This document shows positions 9,669 through 54,498 of a DNA stretch of 64,000 nucleotides, in pieces; position 1 is the stretch's first letter; the number at the start of each line of letters is the position of its first letter. The position numbers were made by a program, and so were the translations under genes. Origin of the DNA: an uncultured Omnitrophica bacterium (GTDB lineage Bacteria > Omnitrophota > Gorgyraeia > JACQQV01); assembly GCA_947085655.1 (NCBI GenBank), contig CAMTXH010000005.1, positions 6,110-70,109 of the forward strand, read 5' to 3'. A model generated the notes under the pieces. That model saw nothing but the letters and a program-made list of their open reading frames with translations, was not told the DNA's origin and searched no databases.

Positions 9669-9771
9669 TTGAGGCCACAACTTACGGAGCCATAGGCGAC
9701 GTAAGTTGTACGGCCGAAATAATCCCGCCGCCATGCAGGTGGCGGGATCTTCACCACAGAAAGAAGGAGTC

Positions 9772-11883
9772 ATGCGAAGATGGATTGTGTGGGTTCTGTG
9801 GTTGGCCCCTTTATGGATCGGAGGGGTTTCATTTGCAGAAGAAAAGAAGCGGGAACCGATAGAGGAGTTTATCATGTTCCCTTTTGAGACGGTCATTGAA
9901 TTGAAGCGGCTCTTTATCACCCCTTCGCGTCTTCCGGGCCGTCCGGAGGAGCTTTACCTTTCGCCCTCCCATGTGACGGTGATCACGGAGGAAGAAATCC
10001 GGCGCTCAAAGGCGAGAACGCTGCCGGAGGTGCTGCGCCAGACGGAAGGAATTGTGATGTTCGATGACACCGGGAACAATCAGGATGTCCGGGTGAGTCT
10101 CCGGGGGTTTAATCAGGGAGAGGATGTGGTTGTTCTGGTGGACGGTATCCGGGCAAACGAACCGGATGCGAACAACATGATTTTCCCGCTCATTCCCCTT
10201 GAGGATATCGAGCGGATCGAGATCATCCGCGGAAGCTCTTCGGCCGTCTACGGGGACGGGGTCTTTTCAGGCGTCATCAACATTGTCACCAAAGGCATTC
10301 CGGAGGAGAAAGAGGTCTTTTACGAAGAATCGTATCAACTGGGAAGTTACCAGGCCCAGCGGTTTTTGAGCCGGGCCGGCGGAACGGCCGGGCCGACCCG
10401 GTGGTCTTTGAACTGGATCCGGGACCTGACGGACGGATATCGATCCAACGGCGGTTTCCGCGCCACCTATTTGGACACCCGTTGGGAAATTCAGTCTGAA
10501 GATAAACAATCTTCCGTCCGGATTCTTCTCAAAAATGTGGACGAAAGCATTCAAAATCCGGGATTTTTGACCAAATCGGAGATGGCCCAGAACCGTCGCC
10601 AAAGCCAAAACCCCAGGGACGGCCGCGAGATTTTCAATACGGTGGCCTCCATTGATTTGACCCATGCCTTTGAAGAAGATTTCTCCGTCCGGAGCAATCT
10701 TTTCTACCGGGAAAACAGTCTCGATTTTATCACCACAAGCCGGACCGCCCCGACTTTTGCCGGGACGGACGAGGTGATTACGAATACCCATCAGAAGGGT
10801 TTTGTTTTTGAAGCCGCATACCGTCGGGGTATCGCGATGACCGACCATGAACTGGTAGCCGGCGTGGAGTTTTCCAAATCGGATCAGGCAGACCGCCAGT
10901 TCGATACGGTCGGCGGCGCCCGTTCTACCCAGACGGCGGACCATGTGACCGATAAGGATACCGTCGGGATCTACTCCCAGTACAACTTTGATCTTTATGA
11001 GTGGCTTCGCGTGCATGCGGGCGTCCGGTTTGATGAGGTGGATTTTACCTTCCGGGATGCGGCGACCCCTACGGATAACGCCGACAACAAATTCTCCGAA
11101 TTAAGTCCAAAGGCAGGGTTAGTCATCCGGCCTTTCGAGGATCTTTCCTTTTTCGGGAATGTGTCCCGTTCCTTCAAATCGCCCAATATCACGGACCTTT
11201 TTACGCTGCCGGGGACCGGGAGTCTTATCTCCAACAAACAGTTAGGCCCCGAGAAGGGGGAGAATTTCGAGGGGGGGGTCCGCTTCACCCTGTGGGAACG
11301 GCTCGCCGGCTCCCTTGCCTATTACCGGATCAACCTTTCCGACGAGATTGAATTTGACGTAACCGCGGCCGATGCGTCTGCTCCCTTTGGAAAGTTTACC
11401 AACATCGGAAAAACCCGGCGCCATGGGATCGAGTCCTCCTTGCGGGGAGAAATCATCAAGGGATTGGACGGATATTTGACTTACACACTGACGGATGCCA
11501 CCTTCCGGTCCGGTTCGAACACGGGAAAGCACCTTACGCTTATTCCCGAACATCAAGCGACCGGCGGCGTATCCTTTGCGCCGCATCCGGATATGTCCCT
11601 TCATCTGGATACCCTGTTTGTCGGGGACCAGTATATGCTCGGAGACGAAGCCAATGCGAATCCGAAGCTCGAGCACTACTCCGTCGTAAATGCTTGGGCG
11701 ATTTTTCACCGGGGGAATGTTGAAATTTTCTTCCGGGTGAATAATCTTTTTGACCGACTTTACGACACGCGGGCGGTCCGGATCGGTTTTGCCGAATCCG
11801 GCTCCGGATTTTCCGCCGGAGACACTTTCTTCACCCCGGCCCCGGAACGGAATGTGGCGGCGGGGGCCCGTTTTCGGTTTTGA
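9772..11883 (+). CDS. btuB: TonB-dependent outer-membrane receptor, BtuB-like (cobalamin uptake inferred from the riboswitch)
   Basis: Start at ATG 9772 with agaaggag RBS and signal peptide MRRWIVWVLWLAPLWIGGVSFA; plug and barrel motifs (ETVITEEEI, IRGSSSAVYGDGVFSGVINIVTK); C-terminal ARFRF. Confidence 0.85.
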   Translation: MRRWIVWVLWLAPLWIGGVSFAEEKKREPIEEFIMFPFETVIELKRLFITPSRLPGRPEELYLSPSHVTVITEEEIRRSKARTLPEVLRQTEGIVMFDDTGNNQDVRVSLRGFNQGEDVVVLVDGIRANEPDANNMIFPLIPLEDIERIEIIRGSSSAVYGDGVFSGVINIVTKGIPEEKEVFYEESYQLGSYQAQRFLSRAGGTAGPTRWSLNWIRDLTDGYRSNGGFRATYLDTRWEIQSEDKQSSVRILLKNVDESIQNPGFLTKSEMAQNRRQSQNPRDGREIFNTVASIDLTHAFEEDFSVRSNLFYRENSLDFITTSRTAPTFAGTDEVITNTHQKGFVFEAAYRRGIAMTDHELVAGVEFSKSDQADRQFDTVGGARSTQTADHVTDKDTVGIYSQYNFDLYEWLRVHAGVRFDEVDFTFRDAATPTDNADNKFSELSPKAGLVIRPFEDLSFFGNVSRSFKSPNITDLFTLPGTGSLISNKQLGPEKGENFEGGVRFTLWERLAGSLAYYRINLSDEIEFDVTAADASAPFGKFTNIGKTRRHGIESSLRGEIIKGLDGYLTYTLTDATFRSGSNTGKHLTLIPEHQATGGVSFAPHPDMSLHLDTLFVGDQYMLGDEANANPKLEHYSVVNAWAIFHRGNVEIFFRVNNLFDRLYDTRAVRIGFAESGSGFSAGDTFFTPAPERNVAAGARFRF

Positions 11884-49781: not shown

Positions 49782-49896
49782 AGGGATAACTCGGTTACCT
49801 ATTATACGTTAGCTCGGCTTTGAATCAAGTAATTTCTCCGGCTTCCTCGATTGACTTTTAACAGGGTTTATGTTACTCTTTGAGAGGAGTAACCTT

Positions 49897-50787
49897 ATGG
49901 CAAAGACGCAATCCAAAAAATTGAAGCTTGGACTTCCGAAGGGGAGTCTTCAGGAATCGACCGTCGCGATGTTCAAAAGGGCCGGGTTCAAGATTCTGGT
50001 GAATGCCCGCTCCTATTATCCGATGATCGATGACGAGGAGATTCAGCCGATTTTGCTGCGGGCGCAGGAGATGTCCCGGTATGTCGAGGGGGGGGTCTTG
50101 GACTGCGGGCTCACCGGGAACGACTGGATTTTGGAGAACGGTTCGGATGTGGTCCGGGTGGCAGAGCTGGTCTATGCCAAGCAGGGGCTTCGGCCGGTCC
50201 GGTGGGTGTTGGCGGTTCCGGAAGATTCGCCGATCCGGAGTGCCAAGGATTTGAACGGAAAACGGGTCGCGACGGAACTGGTCCGCGTCACGGAAGATTA
50301 TTTTAAAAAGAAAAAGGTCAATGCCAAGGTGGAGTTCAGTTGGGGCGCGACCGAAGCAAAAGTCGGGACAAAAGTGGTGCATGCCATTGTCGAACTGACC
50401 GAAACCGGTGCGAGTCTCCAGGCGAATCATCTCCGCATCATCGATACCCTGTGCGAATCGACGACACAGCTCATCGCAAACAAAAAATCGTGGGAGGACC
50501 GCTGGATGCGGGAGAAGATCGAGAATATCGCCCTTCTTTTGAAAAGCGCGTTGGTGGCCGAGGAGAAAGTCGGATTGAAGATGAATGTGGCGAAGAAAGA
50601 TCTCTCAAAAGTCCTTAAGATCCTCCCCGCCATGAAAAAACCGACGATTTCAAATCTCTCCGATGCGGGATGGGTGGCGCTGGATACCATTGTGGATGAA
50701 AAGACGGTCCGCGTGCTGATTCCAAAACTGAAACAGGCAGGCGCAACCGGCATCATCGAGTATCCTTTAAATAAGGTCATTGATTAA
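49897..50787 (+). CDS. hisG: ATP phosphoribosyltransferase, long form
   Basis: Start at ATG 49897 with gagaggag RBS; [25 protein letters not shown]; C-terminal regulatory domain; 296 aa. Confidence 0.8.
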
Positions 50788-50960
50788 AGGGACGTGTTCA
50801 TAAAGTGTCCCTCGCGTGATCTTCATTCAAGGGACACTTTTGAACATGTCCCATAGAGGGACGATACAAGGGACACCCGGCCTGTCGGCCAGGACAGGCT
50901 TTCGAAAACGTCCCATGGAAGGATTAGGAAGGAAAAGAAGAAGGAGGGAGGTGACCCCAA

Positions 50961-51056
50961 GTGCCCAGTGGCAAAAAACGGAAACGGCGCAAGATGGCCA
51001 AGCATAAAAGAAAGAAAAAACTGCGCAAGAACCGCCACAAGAAAAGACAGCGCTGA
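50961..51056 (+). CDS. 31-aa highly basic protein resembling ribosomal protein bS22 (absent from the ORF track, below its 60-aa cutoff)
   Basis: GTG-start ORF MPSGKKRKRRKMAKHKRKKKLRKNRHKKRQR with aaggagggagg RBS about 10 nt upstream; pattern KKRKRRKMAKHKRKKKLRKNRH matches the bS22 family; stop TGA at 51054-51056. Confidence 0.6.
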   Translation: MPSGKKRKRRKMAKHKRKKKLRKNRHKKRQR

Positions 51057-51062
51057 TTCAGC

Positions 51063-52622
51063 ATGATCTTTCAATTTTTCGTGATGCTTCTCATCGGATC
51101 AGTTTTTTCCGGCTGCCAGACGACCCAACAGGCAACCGTGAAAAAAGTGATCATCGTGGGGACCCCTTCTCCTCAGAAAGCCCCCCCGCTGGACGTCCAT
51201 TTCGAAAGGCGAGACCGGAAAAAGCGCTCGCAAAAAGCGCTGATGAAGGCCTATGCCCACTATGCGCTCGGAACGCTCCACGAAAACAAGGACCGGATCG
51301 AGGAGGCGGTTCAGGAATACGAGCGGGCGCTCAAGTATGACGAAACCTCAAGCGCCATTCATACACGTCTCGGCGCCGGCTATATCAAACTGCACCAATT
51401 TGACAAAGCGATCGAGGAACTGAATCAAGCCAAGGCTGTCGATCCAAAAGATGACCGGCCGCGAACCCTCCTCGCCCTTCTCTATATCAGTCTTCGAAGA
51501 ATACCGGAGGCGATTCAGGAATATGAAGAAGCGCTCAAGCAAAACCCCGAAAGTCCCCAGCTTCTTTTTGCGCTGACGGATCTTCATGTGGTCCAGGGCA
51601 ATCTCGATAAGGCGGCCGAGATGTACAAAACGCTGATTGCCCGGGAAGAAAACGGCATCTTTCATTTTAATCTCGGTATCATCTATACCCGGCTTTTGAA
51701 CTGGAAGGAGGCGGAAGATCACTTTCAACGGGCGACGGAACTGGAACCGCAATTTATCGATGCGTATCTGGCGCTCGGTATCCTTTACGAACTCGAGAAA
51801 AAATACGACAAGGCGATCGAGCAGTATGAACATGCGCTTCTCGCCGATCCTTTGAATCCCAAAATCTATCTCCGGCTCGGACAGCTCTATAACGACGAGG
51901 GGAAGGCGAAAGAGGCGATCCGGCAATTTCAGGCCCTTCTCAAAATGGATCCGGATTCACTCGAGGGATCGCTGGAGCTGGCGTATCTGTATCTTAAGGA
52001 GGATCGGGCCAAGGAAGCGGTTTCGATTTTGGAAAGTCTCGTGAAGCGGGGACGCCAGCACCATGATCTTTATTTTCTGTTGGGACTGGCCTACCGGTCC
52101 CTGGACCAATACGACCGGTCCCTCCAGGCCTATCTCAAAAGTCTCGAACTCAAACCGCATCAGGCGAGGACGCACTTCTACCTCGGTTCCCTCTATGATA
52201 GAATGGGCCGAAGGGAAGAAGCGATCCATTCTTTCAAGCAGGCCATCGTCCTCGATCCGGAAAATTCCAACGTTTACAACTATCTCGGCTATTTGTACGC
52301 GGAAGAGGGGATTCATCTGAAGGAAGCGGTGAAATTGATTCATAAAGCGATTACCCTCGACCCGGACAACGGCGCGTATATCGATTCCCTCGGCTGGGCC
52401 TACTATCAGCTTGGCCGGCTGGAAGATGCGGAGCGTGAAATCAAACGTGCCAGCGAGATGATTGAGGACCCGGTGGTGTACGATCATTTGGGGGACGTCT
52501 ATTTCAAACAGGGAAAGTTCGAGGCCTCCAAAGAAGCGTGGCAGAAATCCTATGAACTGGATCCGACAAACGAAGCGGTCAAGAATAAATTGGAACAGTT
52601 GAAGCAGGTCAGCCCACGATGA
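51063..52622 (+). CDS. TPR-repeat lipoprotein
   Basis: Lipoprotein signal LLIGSVFSGC; about 12 TPR units (AxxxYxxAL, GxxYxxxG patterns). Confidence 0.8.
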   Translation: MIFQFFVMLLIGSVFSGCQTTQQATVKKVIIVGTPSPQKAPPLDVHFERRDRKKRSQKALMKAYAHYALGTLHENKDRIEEAVQEYERALKYDETSSAIHTRLGAGYIKLHQFDKAIEELNQAKAVDPKDDRPRTLLALLYISLRRIPEAIQEYEEALKQNPESPQLLFALTDLHVVQGNLDKAAEMYKTLIAREENGIFHFNLGIIYTRLLNWKEAEDHFQRATELEPQFIDAYLALGILYELEKKYDKAIEQYEHALLADPLNPKIYLRLGQLYNDEGKAKEAIRQFQALLKMDPDSLEGSLELAYLYLKEDRAKEAVSILESLVKRGRQHHDLYFLLGLAYRSLDQYDRSLQAYLKSLELKPHQARTHFYLGSLYDRMGRREEAIHSFKQAIVLDPENSNVYNYLGYLYAEEGIHLKEAVKLIHKAITLDPDNGAYIDSLGWAYYQLGRLEDAEREIKRASEMIEDPVVYDHLGDVYFKQGKFEASKEAWQKSYELDPTNEAVKNKLEQLKQVSPR

Positions 52623-53458
52623 GCCCCAAAGCGGACATTCAAGCTCTTAAAAAGAAAGCCAAGGAAATCCGGCGGGATGATCTCACGATGATTGCCAAGG
52701 CCGGTTCCGGACACCCGGGAGGGTCGCTTTCGATGGTGGAAATCCTGACCACTCTTTTTTACGGCGGTGTTCTCCGGCACGACCCAAAAAACCCGGAGTG
52801 GGACAAGCGCGACCGGCTGGTCCTCTCAAAGGGCCACGGCTGCCCGGCCCTTTATGTGGTATTGGCTCACCGGGGATATTTTCCGAGGGATCTTCTCTGG
52901 ACCCTCCGAAAACTTGGATCCCCTCTTCAGGGACATCCCCAGCGCGGCCTTCTTCCCGGCATTGAAATTTCTTCCGGATCGCTCGGCCAGGGACTTTCCA
53001 TCGCCGGCGGGATGGCCCTGGCGGCAAAACTGGATAAGCAAACACACCGGATTTACTGCATCATCGGCGACGGAGAAAGCGATGAGGGCCAGATTTGGGA
53101 AGCGGCGATGACCGCGGCCAAGTATGCGCTGGATAATTTCTGCGCGATCCTGGATGCCAACGGCGTCCAGCAAAACGGGCCGGTCAGCGAAATCAAAAAC
53201 CTTGAACCGCTCCCCGAAAAATGGCGGAGTTTCGGATGGCATCCGATTGAACTGAACGGCCACCGGTTTGAAGAACTCCTTGCGGCCTTTGAAAAGGCAA
53301 AGTCCGTCAAGGGGAAACCGGCCATTCTCATTGCCCGGACGGTCAAAGGGAAGGGGGTCTCTTTTATGGAAGGGCAAAGCAGCTGGCACGGCAAGGCGCC
53401 GAAACCGGAGGAACTGGAGCGGGCCCTTCAGGAAATCGAAGCGGGAAATATCGGATAA
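52619..53458 (+). CDS. Transketolase, N-terminal subunit (split form)
   Basis: GSGHPGGSLSMVEILTTLFY and TPP-binding GDGESDEGQIWEA; ATG overlaps the upstream stop. Confidence 0.9.
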   Translation: MSPKADIQALKKKAKEIRRDDLTMIAKAGSGHPGGSLSMVEILTTLFYGGVLRHDPKNPEWDKRDRLVLSKGHGCPALYVVLAHRGYFPRDLLWTLRKLGSPLQGHPQRGLLPGIEISSGSLGQGLSIAGGMALAAKLDKQTHRIYCIIGDGESDEGQIWEAAMTAAKYALDNFCAILDANGVQQNGPVSEIKNLEPLPEKWRSFGWHPIELNGHRFEELLAAFEKAKSVKGKPAILIARTVKGKGVSFMEGQSSWHGKAPKPEELERALQEIEAGNIG

Positions 53459-53532: not shown

Positions 53533-54498
53533 ATGGGGAGCGCGACAAAGGCACAATCAGAGCAAAAAGCGACACGGGACGGGTTCGGGGAGGGGCTTCT
53601 CGAGCTCGGCAGGACCCGCCCGGACGTCGTCGTGTTGACCGGCGACCTGGGGGATTCGACGCGGGCCAACTGGTTTCAGAAGGAATTTCCGGAACGGTTT
53701 TTTGAAATGGGGATTGCCGAACAGGACATGATGGGTGCGGCGGCAGGTCTTGCCCTTTCCGGAAAAATCCCCTTTGTCTGTTCCTTCGGCGTTTTTGCCA
53801 CCGGCCGGGCCTGGGAACAGATCCGGACCTCCATCTGCAATATGAATTTGAACGTCAAGATCGGCGGGACGCACTGCGGCATCTCCGTCGGTGCCGATGG
53901 AACAACCAACGAGGCGCTGGAAGATATCAGCACCATGCGGGCCCAGGTGAACATGACGGTTTTGGTTCCGTGCGATTCGATCGAGGCGAAAAAGGCGACG
54001 TTGGCGGCGGCCGAGACCCCGGGACCGGTCTATCTGCGGTTGGGACGAAGTCCCTCATCGATCCTCACGAAGGGAAAAGACCCCTTTGTTGTCGGAAAAG
54101 CAAATCTCCTCCGCGAAGGAAAAGATGTGGCTCTTTTTGCCTGCGGGCTCATGGTGGACCGGTCCTTGCGCGCTGCGGCCCTTTTGGAAAAAGAGGGGAT
54201 TCGCGCCCGGGTGGTCAATATGCACACCGTCAAACCGGTGGACCGGGAAGCGATTGTTGCGGCCTGCCGCGACACCGGCGCGATTGTCACCGCCGAAGAG
54301 CACACTATCGTCGGCGGATTCGGAAGCGCCGTTGCCGAGGTGGTGGTTGAAGAGCATCCGGTGCCGATGGCGCGAATCGGCATCCTTGACCGGATCGGGG
54401 AATCCGGCGAGCCGGAAGAACTGTTCAAGGCCTTCCGCCTGACCGCCGAGGATATTGCCCAGGCCGCTCGCCATGTCATCAAGAAAAAAAGAAAATAA
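53533..54498 (+). CDS. Transketolase, C-terminal subunit (split form)
   Basis: FEMGIAEQDMMGAAAGLALSGKIPFVCSFGVFATGRAWEQIR. Confidence 0.9.
   Translation: MGSATKAQSEQKATRDGFGEGLLELGRTRPDVVVLTGDLGDSTRANWFQKEFPERFFEMGIAEQDMMGAAAGLALSGKIPFVCSFGVFATGRAWEQIRTSICNMNLNVKIGGTHCGISVGADGTTNEALEDISTMRAQVNMTVLVPCDSIEAKKATLAAAETPGPVYLRLGRSPSSILTKGKDPFVVGKANLLREGKDVALFACGLMVDRSLRAAALLEKEGIRARVVNMHTVKPVDREAIVAACRDTGAIVTAEEHTIVGGFGSAVAEVVVEEHPVPMARIGILDRIGESGEPEELFKAFRLTAEDIAQAARHVIKKKRK

Follow-up and report, generated by a model that had tools for sequence, protein, structure and literature searches.

The short reading frame that lies between hisG and a gene for a TPR-repeat putative lipoprotein in the window (the whole stretch of 64,000 nucleotides analysed here) is very likely, with a probability of about 0.92 judged from its sequence, a real ortholog of ribosomal protein bS22 in an Omnitrophota-like bacterium. 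It is an ordinary bS22 gene, the expected ortholog without a new mechanism, and it places a known family in a further phylum, with a rare GTG start, a phylum-wide linkage to hisG, and a lineage-specific hairpin upstream. The biological surprise is low, and the value of the gene lies mainly in the gap in annotation and HMM coverage that it exposes and in the wider distribution of bS22 to which it points. The coordinates of the features discussed below are collected in Table 1.

Table 1. Features of the hisG-bS22 region, one riboswitch of the window, and one distant ortholog (positions refer to the window unless another locus is named)
Feature	Position	Strand	Details
hisG (ATP phosphoribosyltransferase, long form)	49870..50787	+	TIGR00070 173 bits; TIGR03455 (HisG C-terminal domain) 108 bits
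Long near-perfect hairpin	50789..50852	+	Inverted repeats and RNA fold
Second small hairpin	~50879-50900		hisG-bS22 spacer
Shine-Dalgarno GGAGGTGA	50947-50954	+	6 nt before GTG; inside purine-rich run 50941-50954
Probable bS22 coding sequence	50961..51056	+	GTG start, 31 codons, TGA stop at 51054-51056; read from sequence
TPR-repeat putative lipoprotein gene	51063..52622	+	TPR family matches; starts 6 nt past the bS22 stop
Split transketolase, N- and C-terminal ORFs	52619-53458 and 53533-54498	+	
Cobalamin riboswitch RF00174	9371-9598	+	87.6 bits; upstream of large ORF 9706-11883
Lentisphaerota ortholog MGSVKKKRRKKMAKHKRRKKLRASRHKNK	L023 5952-6041		MAG JBPOJF010000006.1

The reading frame and its match to bS22 of solved ribosomes

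The ORF encodes MPSGKKRKRRKMAKHKRKKKLRKNRHKKRQR, a peptide of 31 aa in which 20 residues are Lys or Arg (65%), and its GTG is the first start codon past the in-frame stop. When compared to the 533 small ORFs of 20-60 aa found in the six frames of the window, it ranked first in basic residues, with a K+R fraction of 0.65 against 0.47 for the runner-up. The purine stretch aaggagggagg was present upstream, and the best anti-Shine-Dalgarno match within it is GGAGGTGA, which would be complementary to the 3' tail of 16S rRNA; the 16S and 23S genes are absent from the 64-kb window. This 8-mer occurs seven times in the window against 2.5 copies expected, a number that none of 100 shuffles reached. A crude count of Shine-Dalgarno motifs ahead of long ORFs (16/73, with a background of 0.17) was discarded because the starts were mechanical and many of the ORFs spurious. 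The original prediction of a GTG-started ORF of 31 codons, preceded by a strong Shine-Dalgarno sequence and encoding an ultra-basic peptide, was borne out in all of these points when the sequence was read. The start codon itself counts against the bS22 reading, being unique to the window among approximately 140 orthologs, the rest of which start with ATG, and corresponds to a single A-to-G change in the window lineage.

The peptide was searched with phmmer against all PDB chain sequences, and three distinct sequences were returned, every one of them a bS22 built into cryo-EM ribosome maps. These were 9I5V chain 10 (E 3.6e-7, 23/29 identical), whose organism is Porphyromonas gingivalis (PMC12123416), 7JIL chain 5 from Flavobacterium johnsoniae (E 1.2e-6, 22/29 identical), and 8FMW chain V from Borrelia burgdorferi (E 3.4e-5, 20/28 identical). 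All three alignments are gap-free and extend from Met1 to residue 28 or 29. Since K/R-rich peptides can match one another trivially, a shuffle control was run with 200,000 composition-preserving shuffles of the peptide in which Met1 was kept fixed; not a single shuffle (0/200000) matched any of the three chains at as many residues as the peptide itself, and the mean was about 7 identical residues. The landmarks other than Lys and Arg, namely P2, G4, M12, A13, H15, N24, and H26, are shared with the solved chains, and L21 is shared with P. gingivalis. Taken together with the shuffles, these coinciding landmarks show that composition is not the explanation of the match. A profile built from 18 orthologs gave E values of 6.5e-11 to 1e-9 for the bS22 chains of the PDB, and its only further matches, to mS38 and to actinobacterial bS22, were colinear and not significant. 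Across the peptide and profile searches, the PDB chains at E <= 10 belonged only to bS22, mS38, and DUF1713, and none at that threshold showed similarity to bTHX, bL37, bL38, bL36, or bL34.

Within the 18 orthologs, the residues H15-K16-R17...R25-H26-K27 are invariant, as are the HKRKK/RHKK motifs, and the gap-free alignment pairs the invariant K16 with K16 of the actinobacterial 9E16 chain x. In Mycobacterium smegmatis, Lys16 of bS22 contacts the h44 backbone (PMC10081302). Regarding structure, AlphaFold2 run on the single sequence predicted a helix over residues 4-30 with a mean pLDDT of 95.9 and did not reproduce the bend of ribosome-bound bS22; this helix is weak evidence and not discriminating, since such a prediction may be obtained for any K/R-rich peptide. 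A Foldseek search with the AlphaFold2 model gave no PDB matches, a result that is uninformative for a 31-residue single helix. The likeness to bS22 that had been proposed from the K/R pattern and a length of about 33 aa holds as far as the family is concerned, on the strength of the solved-chain matches, the shuffles, the conserved frame, and the synteny, while the closest type turned out to be that of Bacteroidota and Spirochaetota, with 28-30 aa, and not the 33-aa actinobacterial one.

Conservation among relatives and coverage by family models

With hisG as the query against a set with a single genome for each GTDB species, 80 loci were collected, and the closest neighbourhoods (hisG 64-84% identical) came mostly from Candidatus Omnitrophota MAGs. 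An ORF of the bS22 type, 28-32 aa in length, is situated just 3' of hisG on the same strand in 20 genome loci, namely L001-L017, L019, L023 (Lentisphaerota), and L024, so that the synteny suggested as a check on the original prediction is present in relatives. All 20 of these orthologs start with ATG and carry, at the same distance, a Shine-Dalgarno motif of the GGAGG/GGGGGTGA type. Pooled Nei-Gojobori estimates for 21 sequences gave a saturated pS of 0.86, a pN of 0.18, and a pN/pS of 0.21; in the same set, the third codon positions were variable at 27 of 27 sites, and the remaining two forward frames were interrupted by stops in most orthologs. Saturated synonymous sites alongside a conserved protein mean that the protein is conserved and not the nucleotides, which decides the question, raised with the prediction, of whether relatives keep the ORF or the nucleotides alone. 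The ORF is a real protein-coding gene under purifying selection.

A scan with the 18-ortholog profile of the window and the 80 loci, each translated in six frames, gave 21 matches at E <= 1e-10, one per locus and at the position behind hisG, and the next best match had an E value of 1.4. Metagenome contigs were searched for MP[SC]G[KR]KRKRxKMAKHK with a degenerate DNA pattern in which a GTG start was permitted, and at least 120 contigs matched. Among the matches listed, an intact ORF of 28-34 aa was found in 117 and an ATG start in 120 of 120, and a Shine-Dalgarno-like motif was located within 20 nt in essentially all listed metagenome orthologs with enough upstream sequence. As a side observation on the genome records, several MAGs with the Omnitrophota-type hisG-bS22 locus bear the label 'uncultured Planctomycetia' (L004, L008, L012, L014-L016, L018, L022), and further hisG loci are labelled Woesearchaeota or Methanosarcinales. 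All these labels are probably taxonomy or binning errors in public records.

According to the curated family models, the window peptide has no match to NCBIfam NF047430 (ribo_bS22, cutoff 34 bits) and only 13.2 bits (E 0.084) on Pfam PF08213 COX24_C, the mS38/bS22 domain, where the cutoff is 23; taken at face value, both results count against the bS22 reading. The three structurally placed bS22 proteins, taken as positive controls, were missed as well: those of F. johnsoniae and B. burgdorferi matched neither NF047430 nor PF08213, and that of P. gingivalis reached only 11.7 bits on PF08213. Since proteins solved as bS22 fail the same models, the low score of the window peptide is no evidence against its membership. 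The search with a bS22 HMM that had been proposed as a check came back empty for NF047430, yet this outcome is misleading, a false negative of the kind that the solved proteins share. What the two models describe is the actinobacterial and mitochondrial type; the MPxG...HKRKK...RHKK type falls outside them. COX24_C was nevertheless the sole Pfam family matched by all 18 orthologs. The Lentisphaerota ortholog MGSVKKKRRKKMAKHKRRKKLRASRHKNK is the only one to pass the PF08213 cutoff, with 28.3 bits, and to match NF047430, with 26.3 bits (E 5.7e-6). It joins an MGSV N-terminus of the actinobacterial type to an HK..RHK core of the Bacteroidota type and, judged by these features, bridges the two bS22 subtypes.

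The exact look-up of the window peptide among approximately 15 billion predicted proteins found it absent, which is informative only as a missing gene call, and the same look-up found 9 of 10 ortholog peptides absent, the Lentisphaerota one being present. The expectation that standard gene callers would miss this bS22 gene is thereby supported indirectly. A phmmer search against 1.84 billion cluster representatives gave 34 matches at E <= 0.001, and each of the 12 inspected among them proved to be a Bacteroidota-type sequence lengthened by artefact. The artefacts comprised stop read-through to 40-89 aa, an adaptor-like fusion (CLLYTSDAADE), and tandem duplications of the N-terminus from assembly error. 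Such matches indicate that the motif is widespread and say nothing on taxonomy. Some proteins of this kind are labelled in RefSeq as 'AURKAIP1/COX24 domain-containing protein', the name also borne by the 9I5V chain.

Gene neighbourhood, upstream hairpin, and alternative readings

The placement between hisG and a TPR lipoprotein gene, as originally described, agrees with the TIGR00070 and TPR family matches, the lipoprotein nature being read from the N-terminus of the TPR protein. The last residues of this N-terminus, MIFQFFVMLLIGSVFSGC, are ...SVFSGC and resemble the lipobox of a lipoprotein. No obvious Shine-Dalgarno sequence was seen ahead of the TPR gene. In the listed metagenome loci, hisG is situated immediately 5' of the bS22 ORF in 93 of the 96 with enough upstream sequence, with a median gap of about 32 nt, and a TPR gene is located 3' of it in 67 of 82. 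Among the genome loci, the bS22 ORF is followed on the same strand by a TPR homolog in L001-L003, L005-L008, L010, L011, L013, and L015-L017, while the sub-clade formed by L004, L009, L012, and L014 has no TPR gene downstream and keeps the bS22 ORF. The window and the closest genomes have in common the gene order of a ppiD-like gene on the minus strand followed by hisG, bS22, TPR, tktN, and tktC. The split of the transketolase into two ORFs is itself kept in related Omnitrophota loci. For a ribosomal protein gene, this position next to hisG, kept in nearly every Omnitrophota-type locus, is unusual and very stable.

The gap between hisG and bS22 measures 15-40 nt in most relatives against 173 nt in the window, and the short gap makes co-transcription with hisG very likely in those relatives. 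In the window, the spacer holds the inverted repeats I1 and I2 and folds strongly: the segment 50780-50970 has an MFE of -72.8 kcal/mol (z -4.3), and none of 200 shuffles was as stable. The spacer at 50789-50914 is also rich in GGGAC/GTCCC pentamers, with seven in 146 nt against 0.42 expected and a maximum of 4 elsewhere in the window. No U-run follows the long hairpin in the sequence. The alignment of the spacer, including the hairpin, to L001 and L002, the two closest loci, showed no conservation, and the hairpin is lineage-specific. Rfam searches of 50700-51100 revealed no known ribosomal-protein leader or riboswitch, and at a permissive E-value they returned only generic miRNA-type hairpin chance matches far below the gathering scores. 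The GGGAC hairpin could have come in as a palindromic element by insertion, or it could serve to stabilise the RNA or as an operator array.

The stable hairpin between hisG and bS22 leaves the transcription unit of the window uncertain and in this respect counts against the bS22 reading, as does the scan of 50500-51500, in which no sigma-70-like promoter was found. No terminator-like site was present on the plus strand of the same segment, and the one site on the minus strand is within chance expectation. The window bS22 probably shares a transcript with hisG and the TPR gene, and the 6-nt spacing between bS22 and the TPR gene is compatible with translational coupling. It could also be imagined that the phylum-wide linkage to hisG reflects a coupling of bS22 dosage to the ATP- and PRPP-consuming entry of the histidine pathway and that, in the window lineage, a newly acquired hairpin and the GTG partly uncouple or down-tune it, which would make bS22 a regulated, sub-stoichiometric ribosomal component and not a constitutive one; we consider such an arrangement unlikely.

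Three other readings of the ORF were weighed against an ordinary bS22 gene. Short ORFs are plentiful in the window, with 533 of 20-60 aa, and the antisense frames over the region are open too, as might be anticipated if the ORF were a chance, untranslated one in a purine-rich (AAR/AGR/CGN) intergenic stretch. Open antisense frames are, however, expected here because the reverse complements of Lys and Arg codons cannot make stop codons, and chance would not keep the frame, the length, the start codon, and the Shine-Dalgarno motif in approximately 140 orthologous loci, saturate the synonymous sites while conserving the protein, or produce a match to solved bS22 that is significant and robust to shuffling. 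The chance reading is effectively refuted. A small ORF with a regulatory role, whose translation, as a leader peptide or by translational coupling, controls the TPR gene or reports histidine supply and whose peptide is unimportant, would fit the stop located 6 nt before the TPR start, the lack of an obvious Shine-Dalgarno sequence for the TPR gene, and the his gene that adjoins the ORF; his operons classically use leader peptides. We regard it as extremely unlikely, since strong purifying selection acts on the amino-acid sequence itself and not just on the existence of an ORF, only 2 of the 31 residues are His and these form no run, the ORF is positioned downstream of hisG and not upstream, and the sub-clade L004, L009, L012, and L014 keeps it though no TPR gene is downstream. 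Coupling to the TPR gene may exist as a side effect. A his-type attenuator leader in particular was tried and rejected on the position downstream of hisG, the 2/31 His codons, and the missing plus-strand terminator-like site in 50500-51500.

The remaining alternative accepts the homology and moves the peptide off the ribosome, where it might, for example, bind nucleic acids as a basic peptide or act on membranes, expressed together with hisG and the TPR lipoprotein. Very basic ribosomal proteins are capable of moonlighting activities, and the gene sits in no ribosomal-protein operon, being accompanied by hisG in 93/96 and by the TPR gene in 67/82 of the listed metagenome loci; both points were counted in favour of recruitment. 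On the other hand, the peptide shares 70-80% identity with the ribosome-bound bS22 of two further phyla, Lys16 and the HKRKK/RHKK motifs are invariant, and this level of cross-phylum conservation fits an rRNA pocket as the constraint. In addition, the profile scan, which covered the window and the 80 loci, found no second bS22-like ORF that could occupy the ribosome in its place. Off-ribosome recruitment is therefore very unlikely, and an ordinary bS22 gene remains the preferred reading.

Predicted place on the ribosome and relation to known bS22, mS38, and eL41

As an ordinary bS22, the peptide would be translated from the GTG by means of the strong Shine-Dalgarno sequence, and the product, 31 residues long, basic, and mostly helical, would insert into the 30S subunit beside the decoding centre, in the pocket that 16S h2, h27, h44, and h45 form. 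The C-terminal portion of the product would touch 23S rRNA at H68/H70 and add an intersubunit bridge, with the likely functional effect of stabilising h44 and shaping the aminoglycoside pocket. We infer incorporation of the window peptide into the ribosome by analogy, and a placement as in Bacteroidota bS22 appears to be the most economical reading at 70-80% identity and with H15-K16-R17...R25-H26-K27 invariant. In the ribosomes of Flavobacterium, Porphyromonas, Borrelia, and Mycobacterium, the h2/h27/h44/h45 pocket is occupied by bS22 as a bent helix, which contacts H68/H70 (PMC7797042, PMC12123416, PMC10618245). Deletion of bS22 is tolerated in M. smegmatis, where it increases aminoglycoside sensitivity via the conformation of h44 (PMC10081302), and the Borrelia bS22 gene is a candidate essential gene with an abundant transcript (PMC10618245).

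The searchable literature yielded no mention of bS22 in Omnitrophota or other PVC phyla. To our knowledge, Actinomycetota, Bacteroidota, and Spirochaetota are the only phyla in which ribosome structures have revealed bS22. Those who solved the Borrelia structure foresee more cases hidden by short length and non-ATG starts (PMC10618245), and the window gene would be such a hidden bS22, in the uncultured, PVC-related phylum Omnitrophota and with a syntenic ortholog in Lentisphaerota. Because the subtype common to Bacteroidota, Spirochaetota, and Omnitrophota escapes both family models, and because nine of the ten ortholog peptides looked up were absent from the predicted proteins, the ribosomal-protein inventories of candidate phyla likely list too few bS22 genes. 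An HMM made for the MPxG...HKRKK...RHKK subfamily would fill this gap and allow bS22 to be mapped across bacteria, and such a map bears on whether bS22, mS38, and eL41 share one ancestral protein.

When compared to known systems, the window peptide is closest to the Bacteroidota bS22 of F. johnsoniae (Fjoh_1533, 7JIL) and P. gingivalis (9I5V/9I5X), which has 30 aa against 31 aa in the window. Both share the MPxGKKRKR...KxAxHKRKK...NRHKK pattern, with 22-23 of 29 residues identical, and both are very basic and helical; the Bacteroidota protein sits between h44 and h45 and contacts H70 (PMC7797042, PMC12123416). The window gene differs in its host, which is Omnitrophota-like judging by the hisG neighbours, its GTG start, and a two-residue difference at the C-terminus (RQR tail). 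Another difference concerns initiation, for the window bS22 has a strong Shine-Dalgarno sequence whereas Bacteroidia are largely without them (PMC7797042). The window gene is a further SD-bearing case, following that of the mycobacteria, and speaks against an association of bS22 with SD-independent initiation.

The bS22 of B. burgdorferi (bb0822, 8FMW), a spirochaete, is colinear with the window peptide, with 20 of 28 residues identical and a length of 28 aa. As a precedent for the window gene, it also starts with GUG and was unannotated; it was found only by a translated search, once density had appeared in the map (PMC10618245). The actinobacterial bS22 (MSMEG_0945/Rv0550B; NF047430; 9E16 chain x) is colinear as well and matches the window peptide at M12, K14, K16, L21, R22, and R25. 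It has 33 aa, begins with MGSVIKK, and does not show the HKRKK...RHKK signature of the window peptide, and the similarity between the two is not significant by itself (profile E 5.1; no NCBIfam match). Its fold class and pocket are the same as those of the Bacteroidota type (PMC7797042). Beyond bacteria, the C-terminal ~30 residues of mitochondrial mS38 (AURKAIP1/yeast Cox24; PF08213) carry the KKM.KHK core of the window peptide, and plant mS38 (6XYW_BB) aligns to peptide positions 3-20. Compared to the 31 aa of the window peptide, mS38 is far longer, with an N-terminal extension, and cytosolic eL41 is a straight helix of 25 aa; both occupy the same ribosomal pocket as bS22 (PMC10618245, PMC10081302).
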